A stretch of DNA of 64,000 nucleotides from Candidatus Doudnabacteria bacterium (GTDB taxonomy: Bacteria > Patescibacteriota > Doudnabacteria > UBA920), in NCBI GenBank assembly GCA_963768175.1, contig CAVYGQ010000001.1, forward strand, positions 318,305 through 382,304, given 5' to 3'. A model generated the notes under the pieces. The model worked only from the letters and a program-made list of their open reading frames with translations, ran no database searches and was not told the origin of the DNA. This document shows positions 4,784-63,308 of the stretch, in pieces (position 1 is the first letter of the stretch; every line of letters begins with the position of its first letter). The position numbers and the translations under genes are program-made.

Positions 4784-5446
4784 ATGCCAATCAAAAATAT
4801 ACATAAAATAGAACAGCCACGCGAAAAGTTAGAAAAGTACGGACCAGGCAGACTTTCCGATGCCGAACTTTTTGCGATTTTACTGCGTACTGGGCCAAAG
4901 GGGACCGGGGTTTTAGAATTATCTAAAAAGATTTTAAAACAATTTCCGGACAGCAAACTGGCTAATGCGAGTTTCAATGAACTAAAAGATATCCACGGGA
5001 TTGGCCCTGCCAAGGCCTGCGAAATTGTAGCGTGCTTCGAATTAGGTCGCCGAATATTGAAAGACAAAAAATCCATCTTAATTTTATCGCCGCGAGAAGT
5101 ATGGGAGCAGTGTAAAGATATCCGCGACAGCAAAAAAGAACATTTTGTTGTATTTTTTCTGGACACGCAAAATCAGGAAATTAAGCGCGAACTAATATCC
5201 ATCGGCACCCTAAACGCCAGCCTCATTCACCCGCGAGAAGTATTTGAGCCCGCGATTAAACATCTGGCATCCCATATAATTCTCGCCCACAACCACCCCA
5301 GCGGCAGCTTGGAGCCGTCCCAAGAAGACCTCACCGTCACCAAACGCCTAACCGACTCCGGCCGGCTCTTGGGCATAGAAGTACTTGACCACGTAATTGT
5401 CACCGGCAGGGGACACGCTAGTTTAAAAGAAAAGAACCTTCTCTAA
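4784..5446 (+). CDS. radC: RadC-family JAB-domain protein
   Basis: N-terminal LSDAELFAILLRTG and HhH GIGPAKA, with the JAB/MPN metalloprotease motif HNHPSG...S..D at the C-terminus. This is the canonical RadC/UPF0758 architecture. Confidence 0.75.
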   Translation: MPIKNIHKIEQPREKLEKYGPGRLSDAELFAILLRTGPKGTGVLELSKKILKQFPDSKLANASFNELKDIHGIGPAKACEIVACFELGRRILKDKKSILILSPREVWEQCKDIRDSKKEHFVVFFLDTQNQEIKRELISIGTLNASLIHPREVFEPAIKHLASHIILAHNHPSGSLEPSQEDLTVTKRLTDSGRLLGIEVLDHVIVTGRGHASLKEKNLL

Positions 5447-5538
5447 TGTCATTCCCGCAGAAGCGGGAATCTTGTCAAAGTTATCCACTTGACAGATGTG
5501 TACATGTACGTTATTATGTACATAAGGAGAATAAACAT

Positions 5539-5910
5539 ATGAACGGTAAAACAACTTTATCTATTACGGACGCGAGAAAGAAGATTTTTGATATTGCGGA
5601 AGATGTCCAGCGGCCGGGTAAATATTATACTTTAACCGAACAGGGGAAGCCCAAAGCCGTTGTTATATCCGCGGATGAGTTTGAAAGTTGGCAGGAAACT
5701 CTGGAAATAATGGAACAATTTCCGGATTTGCCCAAAGATATTGCCCAAGTTGACAAAGACATAAAATCCGGGGCATATAAGAACTATATAACTTTGGAAG
5801 AGCTTTTAGCCAAAGAGGGTTATGTATTAAGCGAAAAAGCAAAGAATAAATATGCCGTATCAAATAAGGCTGGAAAAAAAGGCTCAAAAAGAGCTGGAAA
5901 AACTTCCTGA
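5539..5910 (+). CDS. Type II antitoxin, Phd/YefM family
   Basis: ORF trimmed to the internal Met preceded by an aaggaga RBS. N-terminal ...ITDARKKIFDIAEDV...KPKAVVISADEFESWQETLEI resembles Phd/YefM. It sits immediately upstream of, and overlapping, a RelE/ParE-like gene. Confidence 0.55.
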   Translation: MNGKTTLSITDARKKIFDIAEDVQRPGKYYTLTEQGKPKAVVISADEFESWQETLEIMEQFPDLPKDIAQVDKDIKSGAYKNYITLEELLAKEGYVLSEKAKNKYAVSNKAGKKGSKRAGKTS

Positions 5911-6200: not shown

Positions 6201-8564
6201 ATGTCAAAGAGAGACTTATCAGAACAAGATATCTGTTCCAAGTTTATCCTTCCCGCAGTAACGTCTGCGGGTTGGGATTTGCAAACCCAAATCCGAGAAC
6301 AATATTCGTTTACGGCAGGTCGTATTATTGTGCGAGGAAAAACTATAGCCAGAGGCAAAAGAAAGCGTGTAGATTTTCTTCTTTATTACAAATCAAATTT
6401 TCCAATTGCCGTTATAGAAGCAAAAGAAAATAATTATTCCGTGGGTGCGGGTATACAACAGGCTTTGGGATATGCGGAATCGCTCGATGTACCTTTTGTT
6501 TATAGTTCCAATGGTGATGGATTTTTGGAACACGACAGATTATCAACCAGTGGTCCAAAAGAACAAGAAATTTCTCTGAATAGTTTCCCTTCCCCCAACG
6601 AGCTTTATAAAAGACTAAAGGATTCAAATAAATTATCCCCACAGGCCGAAACTATATTACAGCAAGATTATTTTCAGGAGTTAGGCGGCAAAGAGCCTCG
6701 TTATTTCCAACAGGTTGCTATCAACCGCGCAGTTAAAGCCATTGTTAACGGCCAAAAACGTCTTTTGCTTGTGATGGCAACGGGTACGGGTAAAACTTAT
6801 ACCGCATTTCAAATAATTTGGAGACTGTGGAAGTCTAAATTCAAAAAACGCATTCTTTTTTTGGTTGACAGAAATATTCTTGCGGACCAAGCCATTATGA
6901 ATGATTTTAAACATTTTGGCGATAAAATGGTTAAAATCCAGGATCGTGCAGTAGATAAATCCTATGAAATTTACCTCGCTCTTTACCAGGGCATAACCGG
7001 CAAGGAAGAAGAAAAAAATATTTTTAAACAATTTTCACCAGATTTTTTTGACCTTATTATAGTAGACGAATGTCACCGGGGAAGCGCAAGAGAAAACGCG
7101 CTTTGGCATGATGTTTTGGATTACTATAAAAATGCCACTCAAATAGGATTAACCGCTACCCCAAAAGAAACCAAAGACATTTCCACGCAAACCTATTTCG
7201 GCGAGCCCATTTACACCTATTCTTTGCGCCAAGGCATAGATGACGGATTCCTTGCGCCATATAAAGTTGTTCGTGTAACAATAGACCGGGACGTAGAAGG
7301 CTACCGGCCAGAGCAAGGGAAAATTGACAAGCATGGCAACGAAGTCCCGGACAGAATTTATAACCTGAAAGATTTTGACCGCAACCTTGTTATCGACGAG
7401 CGTACCAAACTTGTTGCCCATAAAATAACAGAGTATTTAAAGGCAACTGACAGAATGCATAAAACCATTGTTTTTTGTGTTGATATAGACCACGCTGAAC
7501 GAATGCGTCAGGCTTTAGTTAACGAAAATCCAGACGAAGTAGCTAAAAATCGCAGGTATGTAGTTAGAATTACCGGCGAAAACCCGGAAGCCCCAATTGA
7601 ACTGGACCATTTTATAGATCCGGAAAGCCCATATCCGGTAATAGCAACCACCTCAAAACTTATGACTACAGGTGTAGACGCTCAAACCTGCAAAATTATT
7701 GCTTTGGACACAAATATACAATCCATGACAGAATTTAAGCAAATCATCGGCCGGGGAACACGCGTGCGGGAAGATTATGGAAAGCTTTTTTTTACGATTT
7801 TAGATTTTAGGGCGGCAACCGAACTTTTTGCTGACCCAAATTTTGACGGCGATCCCGTGGTAATTTACGAACCAAAAAAAGGCGAAAGCATTGTACCGCC
7901 AGAAGAAACGACGCCGGCTGAATTAAATAAAGAGCAGACTGAAGAAGCTGGAAATTTGGATTGGAATCCATTAACAGACGGCGGTCAAATTACGCAGGGA
8001 CCAGTTCAAAAATATTATGTCAATAGTGTTCCGGTTAAAGTTATTAACGAACGTGTACAATACATTGGTGGAGACGGAAAACTTATTACTGAATCATTAA
8101 CAGATTTTACCAAAAAAAGCATCTTGCAGGAATATCGTTCTTTAAATGAGTTTTTAACCGCCTGGTCCCACGCGGAGAAGAAAGAGGCTATAATTAAAGA
8201 ATTGGAAGATCATGGCGTGCTGTTTGAAGCTCTAAAGGAAGAATCGGGAAAAGATTTAGATCCATTTGACTTGGTTTGCCATATTGCTTTTGGTAAACCG
8301 CCGCTCACCCGAAAGGAACGCGCTGAAAATGTAAAAAAGCGTGATTATTTTACAAAATACGAGGGCAAGGCCAGGGAAATAATAGACGCGCTTTTAGAAA
8401 AGTATGCCGATCAGGGCATAACCGCGATTGATGACATTGGTGATTTGGGGGTTGAGCCTTTTTCGGAATTCGGAACGCCTTATGAAATTGTAAATGGTAT
8501 TTTTGGCGGGAGAACACAATATATTAAAGTTATTAATAAAATTCAGGAAGCATTATACGTATAA
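6201..8564 (+). CDS. hsdR: Type I restriction enzyme R subunit (HsdR)
   Basis: N-terminal restriction-endonuclease domain (VDFLLYY...IAVIEAKE), SF2 helicase motifs I (LLLVMATGTGKT) and II (DECHRG), and a typical HsdR C-terminus. Confidence 0.85.
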   Translation: MSKRDLSEQDICSKFILPAVTSAGWDLQTQIREQYSFTAGRIIVRGKTIARGKRKRVDFLLYYKSNFPIAVIEAKENNYSVGAGIQQALGYAESLDVPFVYSSNGDGFLEHDRLSTSGPKEQEISLNSFPSPNELYKRLKDSNKLSPQAETILQQDYFQELGGKEPRYFQQVAINRAVKAIVNGQKRLLLVMATGTGKTYTAFQIIWRLWKSKFKKRILFLVDRNILADQAIMNDFKHFGDKMVKIQDRAVDKSYEIYLALYQGITGKEEEKNIFKQFSPDFFDLIIVDECHRGSARENALWHDVLDYYKNATQIGLTATPKETKDISTQTYFGEPIYTYSLRQGIDDGFLAPYKVVRVTIDRDVEGYRPEQGKIDKHGNEVPDRIYNLKDFDRNLVIDERTKLVAHKITEYLKATDRMHKTIVFCVDIDHAERMRQALVNENPDEVAKNRRYVVRITGENPEAPIELDHFIDPESPYPVIATTSKLMTTGVDAQTCKIIALDTNIQSMTEFKQIIGRGTRVREDYGKLFFTILDFRAATELFADPNFDGDPVVIYEPKKGESIVPPEETTPAELNKEQTEEAGNLDWNPLTDGGQITQGPVQKYYVNSVPVKVINERVQYIGGDGKLITESLTDFTKKSILQEYRSLNEFLTAWSHAEKKEAIIKELEDHGVLFEALKEESGKDLDPFDLVCHIAFGKPPLTRKERAENVKKRDYFTKYEGKAREIIDALLEKYADQGITAIDDIGDLGVEPFSEFGTPYEIVNGIFGGRTQYIKVINKIQEALYV

Positions 8565-19962: not shown

Positions 19963-21738
19963 ATGCCAAACGACATCCCCGCCAAAGGCGGAAAAACATT
20001 TTTTAAATCTTTGCTCTCCGGCAAAAAAAAGTATATGGTCTTAATTGTTTTGCTTATTGCCGGCTATTTTATTTATAAGCACTATTCGGGCTCCGGCGCC
20101 CCCACGCGCTATGTTTTAGGCCAGGCCAGCACACAAACTATTGTCACTTCCGTTTCCGGGACCGGACAGGTCTCGCAAAACAGGACGGTTAACATAACCG
20201 CGCCAAGTTCCGGCAAACTTACGGCTATAAGCGTAATACAGGGCCAGCAAATTAAAGCCGGACAAACCATAGCAATAGTAGATGAAACCAACAACACCAT
20301 TGCGCTAAACCAGGCTAAGGCATCCCTTGCCAGCGCCCAAGCCAGTTACGACCAGGTTATGGCCGGAGCCACCAGCCAAAGCATCCAGCTGTCCCAGCTT
20401 ACCGTGCAGTCCGACCAGCAGGCTTTGGATAATGCCAGTACCAGTTTGGCAACCGTAATCAAACAACAAGACCAGGCCGTGGCCAACGCGCTAAGCGCCT
20501 ACTTAAACGCGGGATTACAGGCCGTTCCGAGTTCCGGCAACAACAGCAACGGAACCATCGCCATTTCAGGAACCTATACCGGCACCGACCAGGGCGCATA
20601 TACCATTACCACCTACAACACCGGCGGGGGATTGGAATACGTAGTCAGCGGGCTGGAAACGGCCAGCGGGCCCATAAACAAAGTCTCGCCCATAGCTTTG
20701 GGAACCAAAGTCCTGTTTATGCAATTTACCGGAAATTTTTTGAACAACGACAGCTGGACGGTCTCTATCCCAAACTTATTGGCCTCAAGCTACAGCTCCG
20801 CTTATAACGCTTACCAAAATGCCTTAACCAGCCAGACCTCGGCGGAAGCCACCGCCCAAAACCAGGTACAAAGCGCCCAGAACAAACTACAGCAGGACCA
20901 AATAAACCTAAGTGTCCTTGAGGAGCCGCCCACCAACCAGCAGGTAGAAAGCGCCCAAGCTTCTTTGACGCAGGCCCAAGCCCAGCTGCAAAACGCGCAA
21001 ATCGCCTACCAAAATAATATTTTAAGTTCTCCTTTTGACGGCCAAGTCGCGCAGTTAAACAACCAGGTCGGCGACCAGGTTACCGCCTCCACAATTATCG
21101 CGGTGGTGGTCAGCCCGCAGTCGTTGGCCGTAATACCGCTTAACGAAGTGGACGTGGCAAAAGTTAAACTCAGCGATAAAGCCACTATGACTTTTGATGC
21201 CGTGAACGGCCTGACCATTACCGGCACCGTGGTGGAAATTGACAACATCGGCACGGTCAGCCAGGGAGTGGTAAACTATAACGTAAAAATTGCTTTTGAC
21301 ACCGAAGATCCGCGCGTTAAACCGGGTATGAGCGTAAATGTTTCTGTCATTACCGATATCCAAGCCGACGTTTTGGCCGTGCCCAACTCGGCCATCCAGA
21401 CCCAAGGAACCCAAAACTATGTGCAAATTTTGGATCCGACCAAAACCCAAAGTACTACGGGCGTAACCGGCGTAACCTCATCTGTGATACCGACTAATGT
21501 AGTCGTGCAAACCGGCGCCTCCGACGACACCTACACGCAAATTACCAGCGGCAGCCTGAAAGCCGGCGATACCGTGGTCACGCAAACCATTGCGACCACC
21601 GCGACTAAATCCGCGGCCTCCACGGCAACCAGCGCTTTAAGGCTCGGCGGTGGCGGAGGATTCGGCGGCGGAGGCGGAGCCGCGGTCATAAGAACAACCA
21701 CGGGCGGCAGCGCAGCTCCAGCAGCGGCGGGAAGATAG
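19963..21738 (+). CDS. Efflux periplasmic adaptor (HlyD/MacA family) with Gly-rich C-terminus
   Basis: N-terminal TM, long coiled-coil (QAKASLASAQASYDQ..., LTQAQAQLQNAQIAY), and biotinyl-lipoyl-like and beta-barrel segments typical of membrane fusion proteins. Confidence 0.7.
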   Translation: MPNDIPAKGGKTFFKSLLSGKKKYMVLIVLLIAGYFIYKHYSGSGAPTRYVLGQASTQTIVTSVSGTGQVSQNRTVNITAPSSGKLTAISVIQGQQIKAGQTIAIVDETNNTIALNQAKASLASAQASYDQVMAGATSQSIQLSQLTVQSDQQALDNASTSLATVIKQQDQAVANALSAYLNAGLQAVPSSGNNSNGTIAISGTYTGTDQGAYTITTYNTGGGLEYVVSGLETASGPINKVSPIALGTKVLFMQFTGNFLNNDSWTVSIPNLLASSYSSAYNAYQNALTSQTSAEATAQNQVQSAQNKLQQDQINLSVLEEPPTNQQVESAQASLTQAQAQLQNAQIAYQNNILSSPFDGQVAQLNNQVGDQVTASTIIAVVVSPQSLAVIPLNEVDVAKVKLSDKATMTFDAVNGLTITGTVVEIDNIGTVSQGVVNYNVKIAFDTEDPRVKPGMSVNVSVITDIQADVLAVPNSAIQTQGTQNYVQILDPTKTQSTTGVTGVTSSVIPTNVVVQTGASDDTYTQITSGSLKAGDTVVTQTIATTATKSAASTATSALRLGGGGGFGGGGGAAVIRTTTGGSAAPAAAGR

Positions 21739-28197: not shown

Positions 28198-29478
28198 TTA
28201 CGTTCCTTCCTGCCAACTCGCCAAATACTTTTTTTGCGCAGGGGTTAAAACGTCAATTTTAACCCCAATTGATTTCAGCTTTAATTTGGAAACACGCTCA
28301 TCAATTTCGGCAGGTACATCATAAACTTGATTTTGAAGCTCCTGATAATGTTTAACCAGCCAGTCACAAGTTAGCGCTTGGTCGGCAAACGACATATCCA
28401 TAACGGCGGAAGGATGCCCTTCGGCCGCGGCCAGGTTCATGAGGCGGCCTTCAGCGATGAGGAAAAGTTTGCGCCCGTCTTTCATAGTATACTCCATCAA
28501 GCTATCCCTGACCTGCTTCATGCTTTTTGCTTCATGCTTCATGTCCTTCACATTTATTTCCACGTTAAAATGCCCGCTGTTGCCCAAAATCGCCCCATCT
28601 TTCATCAATTTAAAATGTTGCTTGGTAAGAACGTCTTTATCTCCGGTAGCGGTCAAAAATATATCGCCAATTTTTGCCGCCTTGGGCATTGGCATAACAT
28701 CAAAACCGTCCATGGCGGCCTGAAGCGCCGGCAGGGGATCTACCTCTGTGACAATCACGCGCGCGCCCAAACCCTTAGCCCTAAGTGCCATGCCCTTGCC
28801 GCAGTAACCGTAGCCGGCCACAACCAAAATTTTTCCGGCCAAAAGGATGTTGGTGGCGCGGAGCAAACCGTCCATAGTGCTCTGGCCGGTGCCATAATAA
28901 TTATCAAACATGTGCTTGGTCGGGGTGTCGTTTATGGCCACAACCGGATATTTTAACGCGCCGTCTTTGGCCATGGCCTTTAGCCGGATTATGCCGGTAG
29001 TGGTTTCTTCCTGGCCGGCCCAGACGGTTTTTAAAAGCTCGCTTCGTCCGGAATGGATAAGCGATATCAAGTCCGCGCCGTCGTCTATGGTAATCTGCGG
29101 TTTAAAATCCAAAACTTTATTTAGCGCCCAATAATAATCTTTCTTGGAAATATGCTTCCAGGCAAAAACGTTAATGTTCAGCTCCGCCAAAGCCGCGGCT
29201 ACGTCATCCTGCGTAGACAGGGGATTAGAGGCGCACAAGGCCATTTTTGCCCCGCCCGCCGCCAAAGCCTTCATTAGCACCGCGGTCTCTTTGGTCACGT
29301 GGAGACACGCCGCTATGGTTATGCCTTCAAAAGGCCGCCGCTTTTTTCCGCCAGAGGCGGATCCGCCTTTGGCGGAGAAATCTTCCGCGATAATCCGCAA
29401 AACCGGCATTTCCCGCTCGGCCAAAGCAATATTAATATGCCCTTGCTTGGCCAGTTTAATGTCTTTTACTTTGTGCAT
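28198..29478 (-). CDS. ahcY: Adenosylhomocysteinase
   Basis: NAD-binding GYGxxGKG (VVAGYGYCGKGMA), conserved LHVTKETAVL and HFNVEI blocks, and length 426 aa. Contains an in-frame GGSASGG palindromic insertion. Confidence 0.85.
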   Translation of the reverse strand: MHKVKDIKLAKQGHINIALAEREMPVLRIIAEDFSAKGGSASGGKKRRPFEGITIAACLHVTKETAVLMKALAAGGAKMALCASNPLSTQDDVAAALAELNINVFAWKHISKKDYYWALNKVLDFKPQITIDDGADLISLIHSGRSELLKTVWAGQEETTTGIIRLKAMAKDGALKYPVVAINDTPTKHMFDNYYGTGQSTMDGLLRATNILLAGKILVVAGYGYCGKGMALRAKGLGARVIVTEVDPLPALQAAMDGFDVMPMPKAAKIGDIFLTATGDKDVLTKQHFKLMKDGAILGNSGHFNVEINVKDMKHEAKSMKQVRDSLMEYTMKDGRKLFLIAEGRLMNLAAAEGHPSAVMDMSFADQALTCDWLVKHYQELQNQVYDVPAEIDERVSKLKLKSIGVKIDVLTPAQKKYLASWQEGT

Positions 29479-30142: not shown

Positions 30143-30178
30143 TGAGGACAGTCCTCTGGACGTCCAGAGGACTGTCCT
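30143..30178. repeat. 36-bp perfect GC-rich palindrome (intergenic)
   Basis: gaggacagtcctctggac|gtccagaggactgtcctc: perfect 18+18 arms with nested sub-palindromes. Confidence 0.7.
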
Positions 30179-30327
30179 CGCTTGATGTTCACTAACACCA
30201 ATTATATCAAAAAAACTTCTTATTTAAAAGCCTTTTAAAACCGATTTTAGCCCTAACATAAGCCGGAAAAAAACTGAAACAATCTTTTGAACAATTACGT
30301 ATTAATTTATACAAGGAGCTAGTTGAT

Positions 30328-38855: not shown

Positions 38856-40385
38856 ATGCCAAATCCTGTTTGCCTCATAATTCTTGACGGCTGGGGCTAT
38901 CGCGAAAATCCGGAAAACAACGCCATCGCGCAGGCCAAGACGGCCTTTTTTGACGCTCTGCTAAAAAAATATCCGCACACGCAGCTTTTCGCCAGCGAAG
39001 AACACGTGGGCCTACCCAAAGGACAAATCGGCAACAGCGAAATCGGCCATATGACCATGGGCACCGGCCAGGTTTTGGACGTGGATTTGGTAAAAATCAA
39101 CAAAGCGGCGCAAAAAGGCGAATTCCACACTAATCCCGCCTTTTTGCAACTTTTTGACCACGTCAAGCAATACAATTCCACTCTACATGTCGTAGGTATG
39201 GTAAGCCCTGGCGGAGTCCACAGCCATCAGGACCATTTGCACGAATTCCTAAAAGCCGCCAAAACTGCCGGCGTAGAAAAAGTCGCCATTCACGCCATTA
39301 CCGACGGGCGTGATTTGCCTCCGCAAAGCGGCGCCCAATACCTAAAAGACCTGGAAAAAGTTTTGGCCGATTTAAAAATCGGTTTTATCGCCACCGTACA
39401 CGGGCGTTTTTACGCGATGGACCGAGACAAAAACTGGGAACGCTTGGCAAAAACCGAAGCTGCTATTTTTGAAAGCAAAGGCAAGGTCGTGCGGGCAAAA
39501 AAACCGTCCGAAGTCCTAAATGAGCTTTACAAACAAGGGGTTGTGGACGAGCATGTTGAACCGATAGTATTTTTGGACGAAACCGGCAAAGGCTGGCCCA
39601 TTTCGCAAAACGACGGCGTGTTCTTTTTTAACTACCGGCCCGACCGCGCCAGGCAGCTGGCCAAAAAAATCCTGGAAAAAAAGCAGACCCACAACCTGTG
39701 TTTTGTCACGCTTACCGAGTACGACAAAACTTTTGAAACGCTGGTTGCTTTTCCGCAAAGCAAAATCGATACATCTTTGGCCGCGGAAATATCCAAAGCC
39801 GGCTTAAAACAGTCACACATCGCGGAAACGGAAAAATACGCGCACGTAACTTACTTTTTTAACGGCGGACACGAACAGCCTCATAAAAACGAACACTTCT
39901 TTTTAATAGACAGCCGGCGAGACGTACCGACCCACGATTTGGCGCCGGAAATGCGCGCGCACGAAATTGCGGACAAAACCGTGGAAAGAATAAAGGCCGG
40001 CGACAATTTTTTGGTTATTAACTTTGCCAACGCCGACATGGTCGGCCACACGGCTAACCAAAGCGCGATTATAACGGCCGTGGAAACCGTAGACAGGGAA
40101 CTAAAAAGGGTGGTTGAAGAAGTTACAAAACACGATGGAATAGCTATTGTTACCGCGGACCACGGCAACGCCGAAGTAAATATAGACGAAAAAACCGGCG
40201 AAAAGCATACCGCCCACACCACCAACTTAGTCCCATTTATCTTGGTCAGTAATGTCATTCCCGCGAAAGCGGGAATCTTGCGCCCATTGGGCACCCTCGC
40301 CGACATCGCTCCCACCATTTTGGAGCTGATGAATTTAAAAAAACCCGCCTCAATGACGGGAAAAAGTTTAATTGTGTTAAATTAA
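38856..40385 (+). CDS. gpmI: 2,3-bisphosphoglycerate-independent phosphoglycerate mutase
   Basis: Conserved CLIILDGWG, NSEIGHMTMGTG, DGRD, ADHGNAE and C-terminal ADIAPTIL blocks. Contains a 30-bp palindromic element in-frame near the C-terminus. Confidence 0.9.
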   Translation: MPNPVCLIILDGWGYRENPENNAIAQAKTAFFDALLKKYPHTQLFASEEHVGLPKGQIGNSEIGHMTMGTGQVLDVDLVKINKAAQKGEFHTNPAFLQLFDHVKQYNSTLHVVGMVSPGGVHSHQDHLHEFLKAAKTAGVEKVAIHAITDGRDLPPQSGAQYLKDLEKVLADLKIGFIATVHGRFYAMDRDKNWERLAKTEAAIFESKGKVVRAKKPSEVLNELYKQGVVDEHVEPIVFLDETGKGWPISQNDGVFFFNYRPDRARQLAKKILEKKQTHNLCFVTLTEYDKTFETLVAFPQSKIDTSLAAEISKAGLKQSHIAETEKYAHVTYFFNGGHEQPHKNEHFFLIDSRRDVPTHDLAPEMRAHEIADKTVERIKAGDNFLVINFANADMVGHTANQSAIITAVETVDRELKRVVEEVTKHDGIAIVTADHGNAEVNIDEKTGEKHTAHTTNLVPFILVSNVIPAKAGILRPLGTLADIAPTILELMNLKKPASMTGKSLIVLN

Positions 40386-44528: not shown

Positions 44529-45701
44529 ATGGAACCGCTAGCCAATAAAATTCGCCCGACGTCGCTTAAAGGATTTGTCGGCCAACAGCATCTGGTCGGG
44601 CCGGATAAACCTTTAAAGATTGCCGTTGAACAAAAACATTTGTTCAGCTTTATTTTTTGGGGCCCGCCGGGGGTAGGGAAAACCACCCTGGCGCGGATTT
44701 ATGCCAAAGCGGTTAACGCGGAATATTTTGAACTGTCCGCTGTTTCCGCGGGTAAAGATGACATCCGGAAAATTGTTGACCGCCCGCCGATGATGGGACA
44801 GCCGAAAATATTGTTCCTTGATGAAATCCACCGCTTTAACAAAGCCCAGCAGGATTATCTATTGCCGTTTGTGGAAACCGGCAAATTATATTTAATCGGC
44901 GCCACCACGGAAAATCCTTCGTTTGAAGTGATCCCGCCTTTGCTTTCCCGTTGCAGGGTGTTTGTGCTAAACGAGTTGGCCGATGACGAAATCGAAAAAA
45001 TCATCGTTCAGGCCTGCAGAAGTGTCCCCTCTGCTGCAGAGGGGACACTTCTGCCAAAGAACAAAATAGATAAAAAATCCAAAGACTGGCTGGTACAAAT
45101 GGCTAACGGCGACGCTCGCCAGGCCATCAGCATGATAGAAAACACGGTAAATCTATACGGAAAAATTACCGTTGAAACCTTAAAAGACACCCTGCAATCC
45201 AAATTTTTGCGCTACGATAAAGCCGGTGAAGAACACTACAATATCATCAGTGCGTTTATAAAAAGTATGCGCGCCAGCCAGCCGGACGCGGCGCTCTATT
45301 ATATGTGCCGGATGATTGCTGCCGGCGAAGATCCGCTGTTCATCGCGCGGCGCATGGTGATTTTCGCCAGCGAGGACATCGGCTTAGCCCAGCCCACGGC
45401 CTTGGTGGTCGCCAACGCCGTATTCCGCGCCTGCGAAACCATCGGCTACCCCGAATGCGCCGAGAACCTTGCCCACGGGACCGTTTATCTGGCGCTGGCC
45501 AAAAAGGACCGCAGCGCCTACAACGCCTACCTGGCCGCGATGAAGGATGCCAAGGAATACGGCAACCTGCCCGTGCCGCTTAAAATCCGCAACGCACCCA
45601 CCAAGCTTATGAAAGAATTAAAATATGGGGAAGGTTATGAAAGTTATGATAAAGATGATTATCTGCCGGAAAAATTAAAAAGGAAAAAATATCTAATTTA
45701 G
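44529..45701 (+). CDS. rarA: Replication-associated recombination protein A (AAA+ ATPase)
   Basis: Walker [12 protein letters not shown], Walker [13 protein letters not shown], and conserved [10 protein letters not shown] and [11 protein letters not shown] blocks. Carries a 37-bp perfect palindrome in-frame. Confidence 0.85.
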
Positions 45702-49954: not shown

Positions 49955-50935
49955 TTATCCCAGACGACTTCCAATAAATTGCGGATAGCCGTTTAAAAAG
50001 TCGCCGATGGCAACTTCCGATTTCCCCTCAAGCTGAAGTTGTTTAATTTGCAAAAAAGTATTACTGCCGCAAACCGCCACTCCGTTTTCAAGCACTGTGC
50101 CCGGCATTCGTGTCATTCGTGTGCTATTCGTGTCATTCGTGTCGCTTAAAATACAATCGGTAATCTTTAAAATTTTACCGTTCCAAGTTGTCCAAATTCC
50201 AGGCCAAATATAAAAAGCGCGAAATTGATTATAAATTTCCGGAGATGTGCGCTGCCAATCAACTTTGCCGTCGGCTTTACTGATTATTTTGGTATAAGAA
50301 GCTTTGACTTCATCCTGGGGCAGGGGAGTAATTTTGCCGCTGGCATAATCCTCAACAACCCGATTAATCAACCGGGCGGACAGTCTGGCTAGCTTGTCGG
50401 ACAAAGTGAAATAGTTATCATCGGGATCAATTCCAACTATTTCCTGTGCCAGCAGCGGGCCGCCATCAATTTTTTGGTCCAACAAAAATATAGACGTGCC
50501 GGTTTGCTGGTCGCCATTAAGCAAAGCAAACTGGATGGGCGAAGGGCCACGATACTTTGGCAAAATTGAAAAGTGGACGTTAATCGTTTTGTATCGAGGC
50601 AGGCCGATAATTTCCGCCGGCAAAATTTTGCCGTAAGCCACCACTACAAAAATATCCGCGTTTAAATTTTGCAGCTGCCGTAAAAATTCCGGATTCTCCT
50701 TCAAATTTTCCGGCTTTAAAACAAACAGCTTTAAATCTTTTGCCAAAGCCGAAACCGGGCTTTCCTGCAAGTCCTGCGACCTTCCCGCTTCAGCGTCCGG
50801 CTTGGTAACCACAGCTAAAATTTTGTGCTGTTTATTTAAAGTTTCCAATACCGGCAAAGCTTCGTTAGCCGTGCCAAAAAATACAATTTTTCCGCCAAAG
50901 GCGGACCCGCCTCCGGCGGGCATTTTCTCATTCAT
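49955..50935 (-). CDS. fmt: Methionyl-tRNA formyltransferase
   Basis: N-terminal KIVFFGT, formyltransferase core (HFSILPKYRGPSPIQ), and C-terminal domain. Carries a GGSAFGG palindromic element at the 5' end and an in-frame tandem repeat. Confidence 0.85.
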   Translation of the reverse strand: MNEKMPAGGGSAFGGKIVFFGTANEALPVLETLNKQHKILAVVTKPDAEAGRSQDLQESPVSALAKDLKLFVLKPENLKENPEFLRQLQNLNADIFVVVAYGKILPAEIIGLPRYKTINVHFSILPKYRGPSPIQFALLNGDQQTGTSIFLLDQKIDGGPLLAQEIVGIDPDDNYFTLSDKLARLSARLINRVVEDYASGKITPLPQDEVKASYTKIISKADGKVDWQRTSPEIYNQFRAFYIWPGIWTTWNGKILKITDCILSDTNDTNSTRMTRMPGTVLENGVAVCGSNTFLQIKQLQLEGKSEVAIGDFLNGYPQFIGSRLG

Positions 50936-61816: not shown

Positions 61817-61934
61817 TTGCTTAATTATAGCACAGATTTAATGACAAGAGCGGCATGATTTAAATGATTGACAAGATTTGGTGCAATTAATTCATGTCAT
61901 TCTTGTCAATCGTGTCATTCTTGTCAATTATTCT

Positions 61935-63308
61935 ATGAAATACGCTTTTATTTTAGGGAGGGTTTATACTTTATCGGTGGCCGAACTTTTGGCTGTTTTG
62001 GAAAAAACAGACGCCTCTTTAGGCTTAACGGGTGAACCTGTGCAAATTTTGGAAGCCTCGGAAGAAGTTTTAATCGTAGAAACCGGAAAACCCCTTAACG
62101 TGGAAAGGCTGCAAAAAAAGCTCGGCGGGGTAATTAAGATTCTTGAGGTAGTTGATGTGATAAAAAAACGCGAACGGGATTCCATTAATTTTGCCCTAAA
62201 ACATTATTTTAAGCCCGGCATCCTTAAAAAACAGTTTTTTAAGGACTACAAAGGCAAAGTGCAGTTCGGCCTGAGCATTTATATTTTAGATATGGATCTG
62301 CTTAAACGCCCCGGGCCGAATCCGAGGGACAAAAACCAAGGAGTTTTTTCCGCCGGAGGCGGATCCGCCTTCGGCGGAAATTCTGTTTTTAGCGAGCCCA
62401 AAAGAGTAGGCATGATGATAAAAAACGGGCTTACCGAAAGCGGCGCCAGCGTCAGGCTGGTCTTGCCCGAATACAATTCCCTATCGCTGGCTTCGGTAGT
62501 GGTAACAAAAAATTTGCTTCTGCAAAAAGGCGCGGAGATTTGCATCTTGGCCGCCAAAGACAATATTTTTACGGCTAAAACTTTAACAGTGCAGGACTTT
62601 GAAGATTACGGCCGCAGGGATTATCAACGGCCTGCCAGGGACGAGAAACAAGGCATGATCCCCCCAAAAGTGGCGCAAATTATGCTTAACCTCTCGGGCT
62701 GCAAATCCGGGGACAGCATTTTAGACCCGTTCTGCGGCGTCGGCACAATTATCCAGGAAGGCTTGTTGCTTGGCTTCCGCATGATTGGCAGCGATATAAA
62801 TAAGCAGGCCATAAAAGGCAGCGAACAAAATTTGGAATGGTTCAGAAACCGCTACAAAATCGCTCCGGGAAAATACGGAGTGGAGGTTTCCAACGCCGCC
62901 AAGGTCGCCGATTTGATAGATAAATCCAAAAGCCAAATTTCCGCCATTGTCACCGAAGGCACCCTGGGGCCAATATACGGCCAATACCCCAAAGCCGACG
63001 AGATTGCCAAAAATTTTAAGGACCTGGAAAAACTTTATAAAGCCAGTTTTAAAGAATTTGCCAAATTTCTCCCCAAACAAGCCAAAATTGTCATGTGCCT
63101 GCCGGCTTACCGGAAAAGCCGCGACCAATACGAAATGTTCCCCAGCCTTGACTTCGCCCAAGCTTTAGGATATAATTTAGTGGATATTATTTCCCCATCT
63201 GTTGTAAAAAAACTTAAATTCCTCAAACTGACGACCAGAAACACGGCTATTTATGATCGCAAAGATCAGATTGTTGCGAGAGAGATAGTAATCTTTGAAA
63301 AAATATAA
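61935..63308 (+). CDS. THUMP-domain class I SAM-dependent RNA methyltransferase (Trm11/RlmL-like)
   Basis: Trimmed to MKYAF at 61935. Motif I ILDPFCGVGTIIQEG and acidic motif II MIGSDIN. Carries a GGSAFGG palindromic element in-frame. Confidence 0.5.
   Translation: MKYAFILGRVYTLSVAELLAVLEKTDASLGLTGEPVQILEASEEVLIVETGKPLNVERLQKKLGGVIKILEVVDVIKKRERDSINFALKHYFKPGILKKQFFKDYKGKVQFGLSIYILDMDLLKRPGPNPRDKNQGVFSAGGGSAFGGNSVFSEPKRVGMMIKNGLTESGASVRLVLPEYNSLSLASVVVTKNLLLQKGAEICILAAKDNIFTAKTLTVQDFEDYGRRDYQRPARDEKQGMIPPKVAQIMLNLSGCKSGDSILDPFCGVGTIIQEGLLLGFRMIGSDINKQAIKGSEQNLEWFRNRYKIAPGKYGVEVSNAAKVADLIDKSKSQISAIVTEGTLGPIYGQYPKADEIAKNFKDLEKLYKASFKEFAKFLPKQAKIVMCLPAYRKSRDQYEMFPSLDFAQALGYNLVDIISPSVVKKLKFLKLTTRNTAIYDRKDQIVAREIVIFEKI

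Follow-up and report, generated by a model that had tools for sequence, protein, structure and literature searches.

A 30-nucleotide double-hairpin element lies in frame in three conserved genes of a Candidatus Doudnabacteria bacterium and recurs in many bacterial phyla

The DNA studied here (termed the window) is a stretch of 64,000 nucleotides (nt) from contig CAVYGQ010000001.1 of Candidatus Doudnabacteria bacterium assembly GCA_963768175.1 (positions 318,305 to 382,304 of the forward strand), and it carries three copies of a GC-rich element of 30 nt, each located inside a conserved protein-coding gene. The host genes encode an adenosylhomocysteinase, a methionyl-tRNA formyltransferase and a Trm11-like RNA methyltransferase. 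Genes and element copies are arranged as follows, where a slash marks the centre of the element.

28198..29478, minus strand: ahcY, adenosylhomocysteinase of 426 amino acids (phmmer against the PDB, E=1e-149; its homologues are named adenosylhomocysteinase and come mostly from Ca. Doudnabacteria)
29347..29376: element copy 1, TCCGCC-AGA-GGCGGA/TCCGCC-TTT-GGCGGA, in ahcY; sense (minus) strand SAKGGSASGG, AhcY residues 35-44
49955..50935, minus strand: fmt, methionyl-tRNA formyltransferase (Pfam Formyl_trans_N and Formyl_trans_C)
50891..50920: element copy 2, TCCGCC-AAA-GGCGGA/CCCGCC-TCC-GGCGGG, in fmt; sense (minus) strand PAGGGSAFGG
61932..63308, plus strand: Trm11-like/UPF0020 RNA methyltransferase (Pfam UPF0020 and N6_N4_Mtase; longest open reading frame (ORF) from 61878; homologues named tRNA G10 N-methylase Trm11 at JGI)
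62349..62378: element copy 3, TCCGCC-GGA-GGCGGA/TCCGCC-TTC-GGCGGA, in the methyltransferase gene; sense (plus) strand SAGGGSAFGG

The pattern CCGCCNNAGGCGGAYCCGCCNNNGGCGG was matched exactly three times in the window (29348-29375, 50892-50919 and 62350-62377); no extra site appeared there even with three mismatches allowed, and 100 dinucleotide-preserving shuffles gave no match. The fuller consensus T-CCGCC-nnA-GGCGG-A/T-CCGCC-Tnn-GGCGG-A likewise had three exact copies in the window, with none expected by chance, and both the central core GGCGGAYCCGCC (six observed, 0.49 expected) and the half-site CCGCCNNNGGCGG (12 observed, 2.0 expected) were enriched. Copy 2 differs in that one of its units is closed by a C..G pair. 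Translation across the element reads EDFSAKGGSASGGKKRRP in ahcY, MPAGGGSAFGGK in fmt and FSAGGGSAFGGN in the methyltransferase gene, and the peptide shared by all three copies is of the SAxGGSAxGG type. An earlier note made from the letters of the window had proposed three such copies in conserved genes, all in a frame giving GGSA(F/S)GG, and the exact matches and translations agree with it.

The ahcY copy was compared with its counterparts in solved structures and in 120 homologues. Aligned with the closest solved S-adenosylhomocysteine and S-inosylhomocysteine hydrolase structures (PDB 7r3a/7r37), the window AhcY shows a gap of exactly 10 residues, SAKGGSASGG, which bears out the suggestion that about 10 residues had been added to a loop of this enzyme. 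Relatives that are 85-89% identical (P0003-P0009) are 416 amino acids long and lack the segment, reading EDF/KKR across the site. At the DNA level, two independent contigs coding P0003 (L121 and L122) read GATTTC/AAAAAG where the window reads GATTTC-TCCGCCAAAGGCGGATCCGCCTCTGGCGGA-AAAAAG, a difference of exactly 30 nt with zero bases duplicated.

The other two genes gave the same picture. For the Trm11-like protein, relatives that are 91-93% identical (P0125 and P0126) are empty (VF/NSVF), as are all the more distant homologues, while the closest carriers (P0122-P0124) hold decayed inserts, SAGGGSSLGG, SAEGGFGFGG and AAGGGSAFGG; the insert peptides of these orthologues have thus diverged after insertion. 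In the case of Fmt, PDB homology begins at residue 16, immediately past the element. The fmt ORF starts at 50935, and no in-frame start codon is present between the element and the conserved KIVFFGT; translation probably began ancestrally at the ATG at 50923-50921. The fmt of a sister genome (L126, whose AhcY is 88% identical) opens with ATG/AAAATTGTT (ATG AAA ATT GTT, MKIVFFGT), and in the window ATG is followed by the 30 nt and then AAAATTGTA, continuing AAA ATT GTA, which places the element between codons 1 and 2 of the ancestral fmt.

Exact 30-nt gaps were found in close orthologues at four gene sites, the empty junctions being TTY/AAA, TTT/AAA and ATG/AAA. The element is therefore a lineage-specific, clean insertion of 30 nt (10 codons) without target-site duplication. 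Close relatives of AhcY, the Trm11-like protein and Fmt are empty, so the GGSA(F/S)GG segments are not ancestral, in line with the earlier expectation; the length of about 36 bp given before has to be reduced to 30 nt, as the T-run and A-run flanks are already present in the empty sites. An origin by point mutation, as in uptake signals, was ruled out by the same clean 30-nt insertions.

Within the AhcY family the identical element occupies three different sites in scattered clades. At the second, after QQPF (P0034; DNA in L018), a 30-nt block lies at CCGTTT/AAAAAT, and at the third, near residue 323 (P0011, P0027, P0050 and P0068), at ACAATG/AAAGAT. A neighbour-joining tree of 60 AhcY homologues placed carriers of the first site, the one filled in the window, in four separate clades, with the empty P0003 as sister to the window gene. 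For four of these first-site copies the DNA was available; their stems are intact or nearly so, and synonymous positions alongside differ. Scattered carriers with intact stems call for recurrent insertion at a hot spot, precise loss or concerted evolution, three possibilities between which a single-gene neighbour-joining tree does not discriminate. At the same variable loops of AhcY and of the methyltransferase, P0099, P0133 and P0150 carry other inserts of ~ 10-14 residues (ALRQGSGPAV in AhcY; segments including SFAKATEGKPGQSF and FSKASSGKPAFGSF in the methyltransferase), which suggests that other small element families use the same tolerated loops.

The anatomy of the element was studied in ~ 0.9 Mb of collected loci, gathered with a pattern that demanded perfect stems. 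These hold 131 two-unit copies and 29 single units, many of the latter being decayed doublets. The element consists of two mutually inverted, abutted 15-nt units, TCCGCC-nnn-GGCGGA, each with a 6-bp stem and a 3-nt loop. The closing pair of the unit is T..A in 108 copies, C..G in 20 and mixed in three (mixed in unit 2; Fisher p=2e-20), whereas no covariation is seen between the two bases at the extreme ends of the element. As an independent test of the covariation, the double variant that it predicts, with a GC centre, was sought in JGI metagenomes. This subfamily comprised 56 copies, and in 43 of them the outer bases, which the search left unconstrained, were C and G, matching the two-hairpin prediction. 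Decayed copies also contain double compensatory changes within a unit (L031:1521, L069:6892 and L097:1345; for example CCCGCT-CAC-AGCGGG and CCCTCC-GGA-GGAGGG). Between loop 1 and loop 2 the two variable bases of each loop show no complementarity: Watson-Crick pairs make up 43% and 24%, where 35% and 40% would be expected.

Covariation of the closing pair, compensatory changes and non-complementary loops together indicate that the conserved fold is two 6-bp hairpins. RNAfold prefers a single long hairpin, and the same three lines of evidence rule that fold out; the element had earlier been called a near-perfect palindrome, and its dyad symmetry is real, but the functional fold is two small hairpins. 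The loop bases adjoining the central arms are fixed (A and T), and the remaining ones are purine-purine (R-R) in loop 1 and pyrimidine-pyrimidine (Y-Y) in loop 2, whether the copy is coding or non-coding, such that unit 2 inverts unit 1 in the R/Y pattern of its loop. Local folds had energies of -24 to -33 kcal/mol, with z-scores of -3.3 to -5.9. Tandem expansion of the 15-nt unit was rejected, as no array of three or more units was found in the collected loci. The central GGATCC does not mark a restriction site, since the centre varies by subfamily (GGACCC, GGGCCC). The copies of the GC-centre subfamily (CCCGCC..GGCGGG twice; JGI metagenome contigs L131-L184) often lie within longer palindromes (tgccca..tgggca, aggttt..aaacct, caggtt..aacctg); several contigs have two or three copies, and a reading-frame bias is not clear in this subfamily.

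The flanks of the element are strongly biased, with T at -2 in 87% of copies, T or C at -1, A at +1, and A at +2 in 81%. These frequencies are equal in copies in the Gly/Ser/Ala frame, copies in the other frames and copies in short ORFs (likely non-coding). The T-run and A-run are already there in empty alleles and the flanks are the same in all frames, which indicates that the preference stems from insertion and not from codon choice. An intrinsic terminator was also rejected, because on both strands a T-run precedes and an A-run follows the hairpins, which is the reverse of a terminator.

Owing to the dyad symmetry, either orientation of the element gives the same three frames, SAxGGSAxGG, RRRRIRLRR and PPxADPPxAE, none of which contains a stop codon. 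Stop-to-stop ORFs of at least 150 codons enclose 82 of the 131 copies, and 69 of these 82 are read in the SAxGGSAxGG frame (binomial p=3e-21), leaving 13 in the other two. In loci below 50% GC the count was 47 of 55, while copies in short ORFs were spread near evenly over the frames (16/13/12). The second variable residue (y) on the sense strand is Ser in 48 cases, Phe in 14 and Leu in 5. A scan beyond the window had been proposed as a check on the frame, and the wider scan made here yielded many more copies together with a strong bias.

The insertions occupy positions where extra residues are likely to be tolerated. In an AlphaFold (AF2) model of the window AhcY (mean pLDDT, the model's per-residue confidence score, 85.8), residues 35-44 form a loop after helix 25-34 and before strand 54-59, with pLDDT of 73-77 against more than 90 around it, and the third AhcY site falls in a beta-turn between strands 327-332 and 337-341. 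Likewise, Fmt holds its copy at the N terminus and ribosomal protein L5 in the C-terminal tail. The latter was seen in a Patescibacteria ribosomal-protein operon (L030:1797-2342, minus strand), in which the element forms the L5 tail (..GFPISAKGGPASGGK, then the stop codon) and a second copy lies directly downstream of the L18 stop codon. Loop and terminus positions, frame bias and decay fit purifying selection against the Arg-rich and Pro-rich frames and not a useful peptide. What purifying selection would accordingly retain is mainly insertions read in the Gly/Ser/Ala frame that lie in loops or at the ends of proteins; the earlier note had read the consistent frame as selection on the encoded peptide, and of that reading the strong bias stands, while the decay of the inserts and the apparent selection against the other frames speak for a different cause.

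The distribution of the element was surveyed in one genome per GTDB species, which gave at least 120 loci. Among the matches listed, 53 loci are from the candidate phyla radiation (CPR)/Patescibacteria (many classes), 20 from Omnitrophota, 12 from the PVC group (Kiritimatiellae, Planctomycetota, Verrucomicrobiota, Lentisphaeria), 11 from metagenome-assembled genomes (MAGs) labelled Gammaproteobacteria, five from Ignavibacteria/Bacteroidota, four from Chloroflexota, one each from Acidobacteria, Firestonebacteria, Desulfotomaculaceae and Deltaproteobacteria, and 11 are unclassified; none of the matches listed is archaeal. The element is thus not confined to CPR and occurs in many phyla. Mis-binning does not explain this breadth, since a single-cell genome and long-read contigs of 0.9-1.6 Mb are among the carriers. 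A phage or plasmid vector was rejected: the element is present in only two of the 2.9 million viral contigs of IMG/VR, and plasmids and phages of cultured hosts gave only partial matches at chance level. A known RNA family was likewise rejected, as Rfam recognised only tRNAs in the window and no family overlapping the element in 20 loci with non-coding copies.

Several non-coding settings were recorded. One copy lies in the 23S-5S rRNA spacer of an unclassified bacterium (L114:2509-2538), probably within the rRNA precursor transcript, and further copies are near tRNAs. In two Omnitrophota genomes (L062:590-650; L101:2409-2440 and 2500-2530) tRNA-like fragments carry the element at one and the same D-loop position, GCTCA-TTT-element-GGGTTAGAGCG; L101 has two tandem copies of such a 5' half closely upstream of a genuine tRNA-Arg, and neither ARAGORN nor Rfam called a tRNA in the fragments of L062 and L101. 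In a Kiritimatiellae MAG the element is nested in an intergenic repeat of ~ 185 bp that occurs twice, 1821 bp apart (L008:4569-4752 and 6390-6572); this repeat also holds a GTCATTCCGAGCGTAG-type hairpin motif, and the MAG has copies on at least three contigs. Clusters of several different GC-rich hairpin repeats (for example CCCTGAGCGAAGTCGAAGGG and GGAATGACAG) are found beside intergenic element copies in Saccharibacteria and Patescibacteria MAGs (L010:1-760; L007:330-600).

We consider it highly probable that these copies belong to a non-autonomous mobile DNA element, a 30-nt double hairpin whose insertions are filtered for frame by selection. The element inserts as an exact block of 30 nt without duplication and prefers T-rich/A-rich junctions. 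Its copies would land in all frames; purifying selection would then remove most copies outside the Gly/Ser/Ala frame, and the survivors would decay as ordinary coding sequence. The element would be selfish and mobilised in trans. More tentatively, it may move as folded single-stranded DNA (ssDNA) through a hairpin-recognising enzyme acting in trans, for example an HUH/Y1 transposase; this proposal is modelled on the repetitive extragenic palindromes (REPs) and REP doublets (REPINs) with their RAYT transposases, and on the IS200/IS605 insertion sequences. REPs/REPINs and IS200/IS605 leave no duplication and are precisely excised, and the target of IS200/IS605 is one-sided.

Some observations sit less well with a mobile element of this kind. 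No mobilising enzyme was found when all ORFs of 128 loci and of the window were searched by phmmer with E. coli RayT. The preference for a symmetric, two-sided target is unlike the one-sided target of IS200/IS605. A small, identical element spread over more than ten phyla needs a vector or a ubiquitous enzyme, and viral, plasmid and phage matches are scarce. The perfect stems at the first AhcY site in four lineages, next to flanking synonymous sites that differ, point to possible maintenance of the sequence. Moreover, conservation among the collected copies is partly ascertainment, given the perfect-stem search pattern, and the covariation could partly reflect a few subfamilies and not many independent events.

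The phmmer search did return one Y1_Tnp gene (Pfam E=8.5e-7), which is tied to its own GTAG-tagged REPs and not to the element. This RAYT-like gene belongs to an Omnitrophota MAG in which the element is present too (L095:3644-4330, minus strand); GTAG-tagged REPs (GTAGGGGAGGGCCTTGCGTCCTCCC; GGGCGGACGCAAGGCCCGCCCCTAC) lie both within and next to the gene, and downstream its 3' part is partially duplicated. An association of the element with RAYT is therefore unsupported in the 128 loci and the window.

A bolder version of the mobile-element interpretation would place the 30-nt double hairpin among the smallest mobile DNA elements, spreading among at least 10 bacterial phyla (CPR, Omnitrophota, PVC, FCB, Chloroflexota and others) without a dedicated transposase in its neighbourhood; we hold this to be rather doubtful as it stands. 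The same low expectation attaches to its two further parts, namely that a ubiquitous host replication or repair activity, or a hitherto unrecognised hairpin-specific enzyme, might be used, and, no more probably, that an ssDNA 'dumbbell' might insert at TTY/RAA, be excised precisely and act as an ongoing cross-phylum source of 10-residue loops added to essential proteins.

Alternatively, the hairpins could serve the host at the DNA or RNA level and be kept by selection, for example as a site for a nucleoid or recombination protein, or as a signal for mRNA stability, translational pausing or processing. The first AhcY site would suit such a role, as its stems are perfect in four diverged lineages while nearby synonymous sites differ, and so would the strong local folds, the fixed A/T loop bases beside the central arms, the R-R/Y-Y bias that extends to non-coding copies, and the copies in the 23S-5S spacer and near tRNAs. 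However, close relatives lack the element at every site examined, the host genes are mutually unrelated (AhcY, Fmt, Trm11-like, L5 and many others), copies decay once inserted, and loop or terminus positions are those expected of tolerated, not required, insertions. A host function is on this evidence unlikely.

It is less probable still that the peptide SAxGGSAxGG(K) is itself adaptive and was spread for a role in proteins, for example as a flexible linker or a P-loop-like GxxxxGK. The single-frame bias is strong, and with the usual AAA flank the peptide ends in GSASGGK, which fits GxxxxGK. Yet about one-third of the copies are outside long ORFs with sequence and flanks unchanged, 13 of the 82 copies in long ORFs use one of the other two frames, the sites are varied and in unrelated folds, and the peptide drifts freely after insertion. 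In addition, the change from T..A to C..G replaces Ser by Pro on one arm and has no effect on the residue encoded by the other, so the peptide does not drive this covariation.

A third possibility, and a very improbable one, is that transcripts lose the 30 nt in the manner of a miniature intron, or that translation bypasses them, the protein in either case lacking the peptide. Two hairpins would make a recognisable RNA signal, and an insert left in the D-loop of the tRNA-like sequences at the two Omnitrophota loci would be disruptive; those hosts are, however, fragments that ARAGORN and Rfam do not call. Removal or bypass would not be expected to produce a one-frame bias, whereas 69 of 82 copies share one frame, which argues indirectly that the element is translated. 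Decayed copies unable to fold also stay in frame with their genes intact, and the analogous mitochondrial double-hairpin elements are reported to be kept in transcripts (PMC2800124).

An artefact or chance origin (low-complexity Gly-rich coding sequence, an assembly chimera or an adapter-like contaminant) was rejected with near certainty, for although an identical short palindrome in MAGs of many phyla and studies could suggest contamination, shuffling expects no matches, the copies are in frame and frame-biased, their loop bases differ, the same gene site is filled in independent NCBI, ENA and JGI assemblies with sequence variants, and long-read contigs of 0.9-1.6 Mb as well as a single-cell genome are among the assemblies.

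Other small repeats are present in the window, one of them a possible relative.

19978..19992: single 15-nt unit cCCGCCAAAGGCGGA (CCCGCC-AAA-GGCGGA, giving PAKGG), a half-site match at the N terminus of an HlyD-like ORF (19963..21738, with HlyD Pfam hits)

The sister genome has a decayed homologue of this unit, CCCGCCCAAAGCGGA, and the unit is possibly an old remnant of the element, its membership of the family being uncertain. A degenerate relative had been suspected further along the same ORF, at 21650-21690, but that segment fails the pattern at three mismatches, and the Gly-rich C-terminal tail to which it belongs is conserved in the sister genome and so is ancestral and not a copy.

A second hairpin family, aatgtcATTCCCGC-RRAA-GCGGGAATcttg, occurs at 5451-5470, at the 5' end of ORF 5446..5910 and probably upstream of its real start, and at 40257-40276, in frame near the C terminus of ORF 38856..40385 (..VSNVIPAKAGILRPLG..); only one further copy was present in 184 fetched loci. 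At 45016-45054 a perfect 39-nt palindrome (18-bp stem, loop CTG) lies within a rarA/mgsA-like gene (44529..45701) and encodes 14 residues. Aligned with E. coli MgsA (3pvs), it falls in a variable loop and adds only three residues net, and it may be another type of in-frame palindromic insertion. Perfect GC-rich palindromes are also found between genes at 30144-30179 (16-bp stem) and 2826-2860 (15-bp stem), the second being followed by a T-run and terminator-like. A longer parent element bounded by single units was sought in the collected loci, which yielded only other small repeats, and no longer element bounded by units was seen there.

The element shares the logic of REPINs, of Rickettsia palindromic elements (RPEs) and of mitochondrial double-hairpin elements, yet it lies outside each of these families. 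Both RPEs and intragenic REPs, the latter from the GTAG and CGTC superfamilies, have been documented (Di Nocera et al. 2013; PMC3733652), and in some species intragenic REPs code for 10-30 extra residues (PMC3733652). REPINs are inverted REP doublets (PMC3116915). The present element resembles REPs/REPINs, in which the unit is an imperfect palindrome of 20-40 bp, in its short GC-rich hairpin unit, its non-autonomy, the inverted doublet as the mobile form, and its conserved stems and varying loops, and both have copies within ORFs. It differs from them in that its 131-copy consensus lacks a GTAG or CGTC tag, the ends being T and A with T-rich and A-rich flanks; no RAYT was found next to element copies in the 128 loci and the window. 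REPINs are roughly 70-110 nt long, whereas the element measures 30 nt and its units abut without a spacer. Its collected copies are also mostly intragenic (82 of 131 copies in ORFs of at least 150 codons, and all three full copies of the window in genes), against a mainly extragenic location for REPs, and one sequence is found over many phyla, while REPs are specific to a species or genus.

RPEs, which Ogata et al. are said to have described in 2000 as lying in frame in genes, are ~ 100-150 bp long, restricted to Rickettsia and grouped in families RPE-1 to RPE-8. Both they and the present element are palindromic selfish repeats found in frame in functional genes, including housekeeping genes, at tolerated surface positions in reduced genomes. 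The element is distinguished by its 30-nt length, double hairpin, cross-phylum range and non-Rickettsia hosts, a distinction drawn from the description of RPEs. The analogy made in the earlier note thus applies to how the element works and not to membership.

The double-hairpin elements of Allomyces mitochondria, other repetitive hairpin-forming elements and the GC clusters of yeast (Paquin, Laforest and Lang 2000) are, as summarised in PMC2800124, inserted in genes without flanking duplication and kept in transcripts. As there described, they too have two adjacent GC-rich hairpins, no flanking duplication, and conserved stems with variable loops, are inserted in intergenic regions, RNA genes and protein genes, and vary in presence among close relatives. 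They are organellar and, by the same account, limited to close relatives, whereas the present element resides on the chromosomes of bacteria from many phyla, is fixed at 30 nt in length and passes a frame filter; here again the distinction is one of description. Miniature inverted-repeat transposable elements, too, are non-autonomous, and the two units are formally inverted repeats. Such elements are 70-300 bp long, with terminal inverted repeats that stem from a parent insertion sequence, an internal segment and a target-site duplication, unlike the 30 nt, the lack of an internal segment and the absence of any duplicated base at four filled/empty sites seen here.

No published description of the core sequence, of the peptides or of in-frame palindromic elements in CPR/Patescibacteria was found, most subscription journals being outside the search. 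The supposition that the family was undescribed in a CPR-like bacterium holds to that extent, although the element is not specific to CPR. The element is notable for its very small size, the cross-phylum identity and the recurrent hits in essential genes.

If the interpretation is true, mobile DNA extends down to 30 nt, crosses phyla and colonises the most conserved genes of streamlined genomes, among them those for AhcY, Fmt, ribosomal protein L5 and tRNA-modifying enzymes. An in-frame insert of this kind is invisible to annotation and is seen only as a 10-residue gap in orthologue alignments. It amounts to a natural test of which loops in proteins accept 10-residue Gly/Ser/Ala insertions, and it offers a convenient marker for typing CPR and Omnitrophota at strain level by presence or absence. 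The double hairpin, the lack of duplication and the symmetric T/A target make the element a tractable substrate for enzyme discovery, and the enzyme responsible might be a compact, sequence-specific DNA inserter. Finally, the several other small hairpin families in the window and in related loci suggest an uncatalogued pool of such elements shared among uncultured bacteria.

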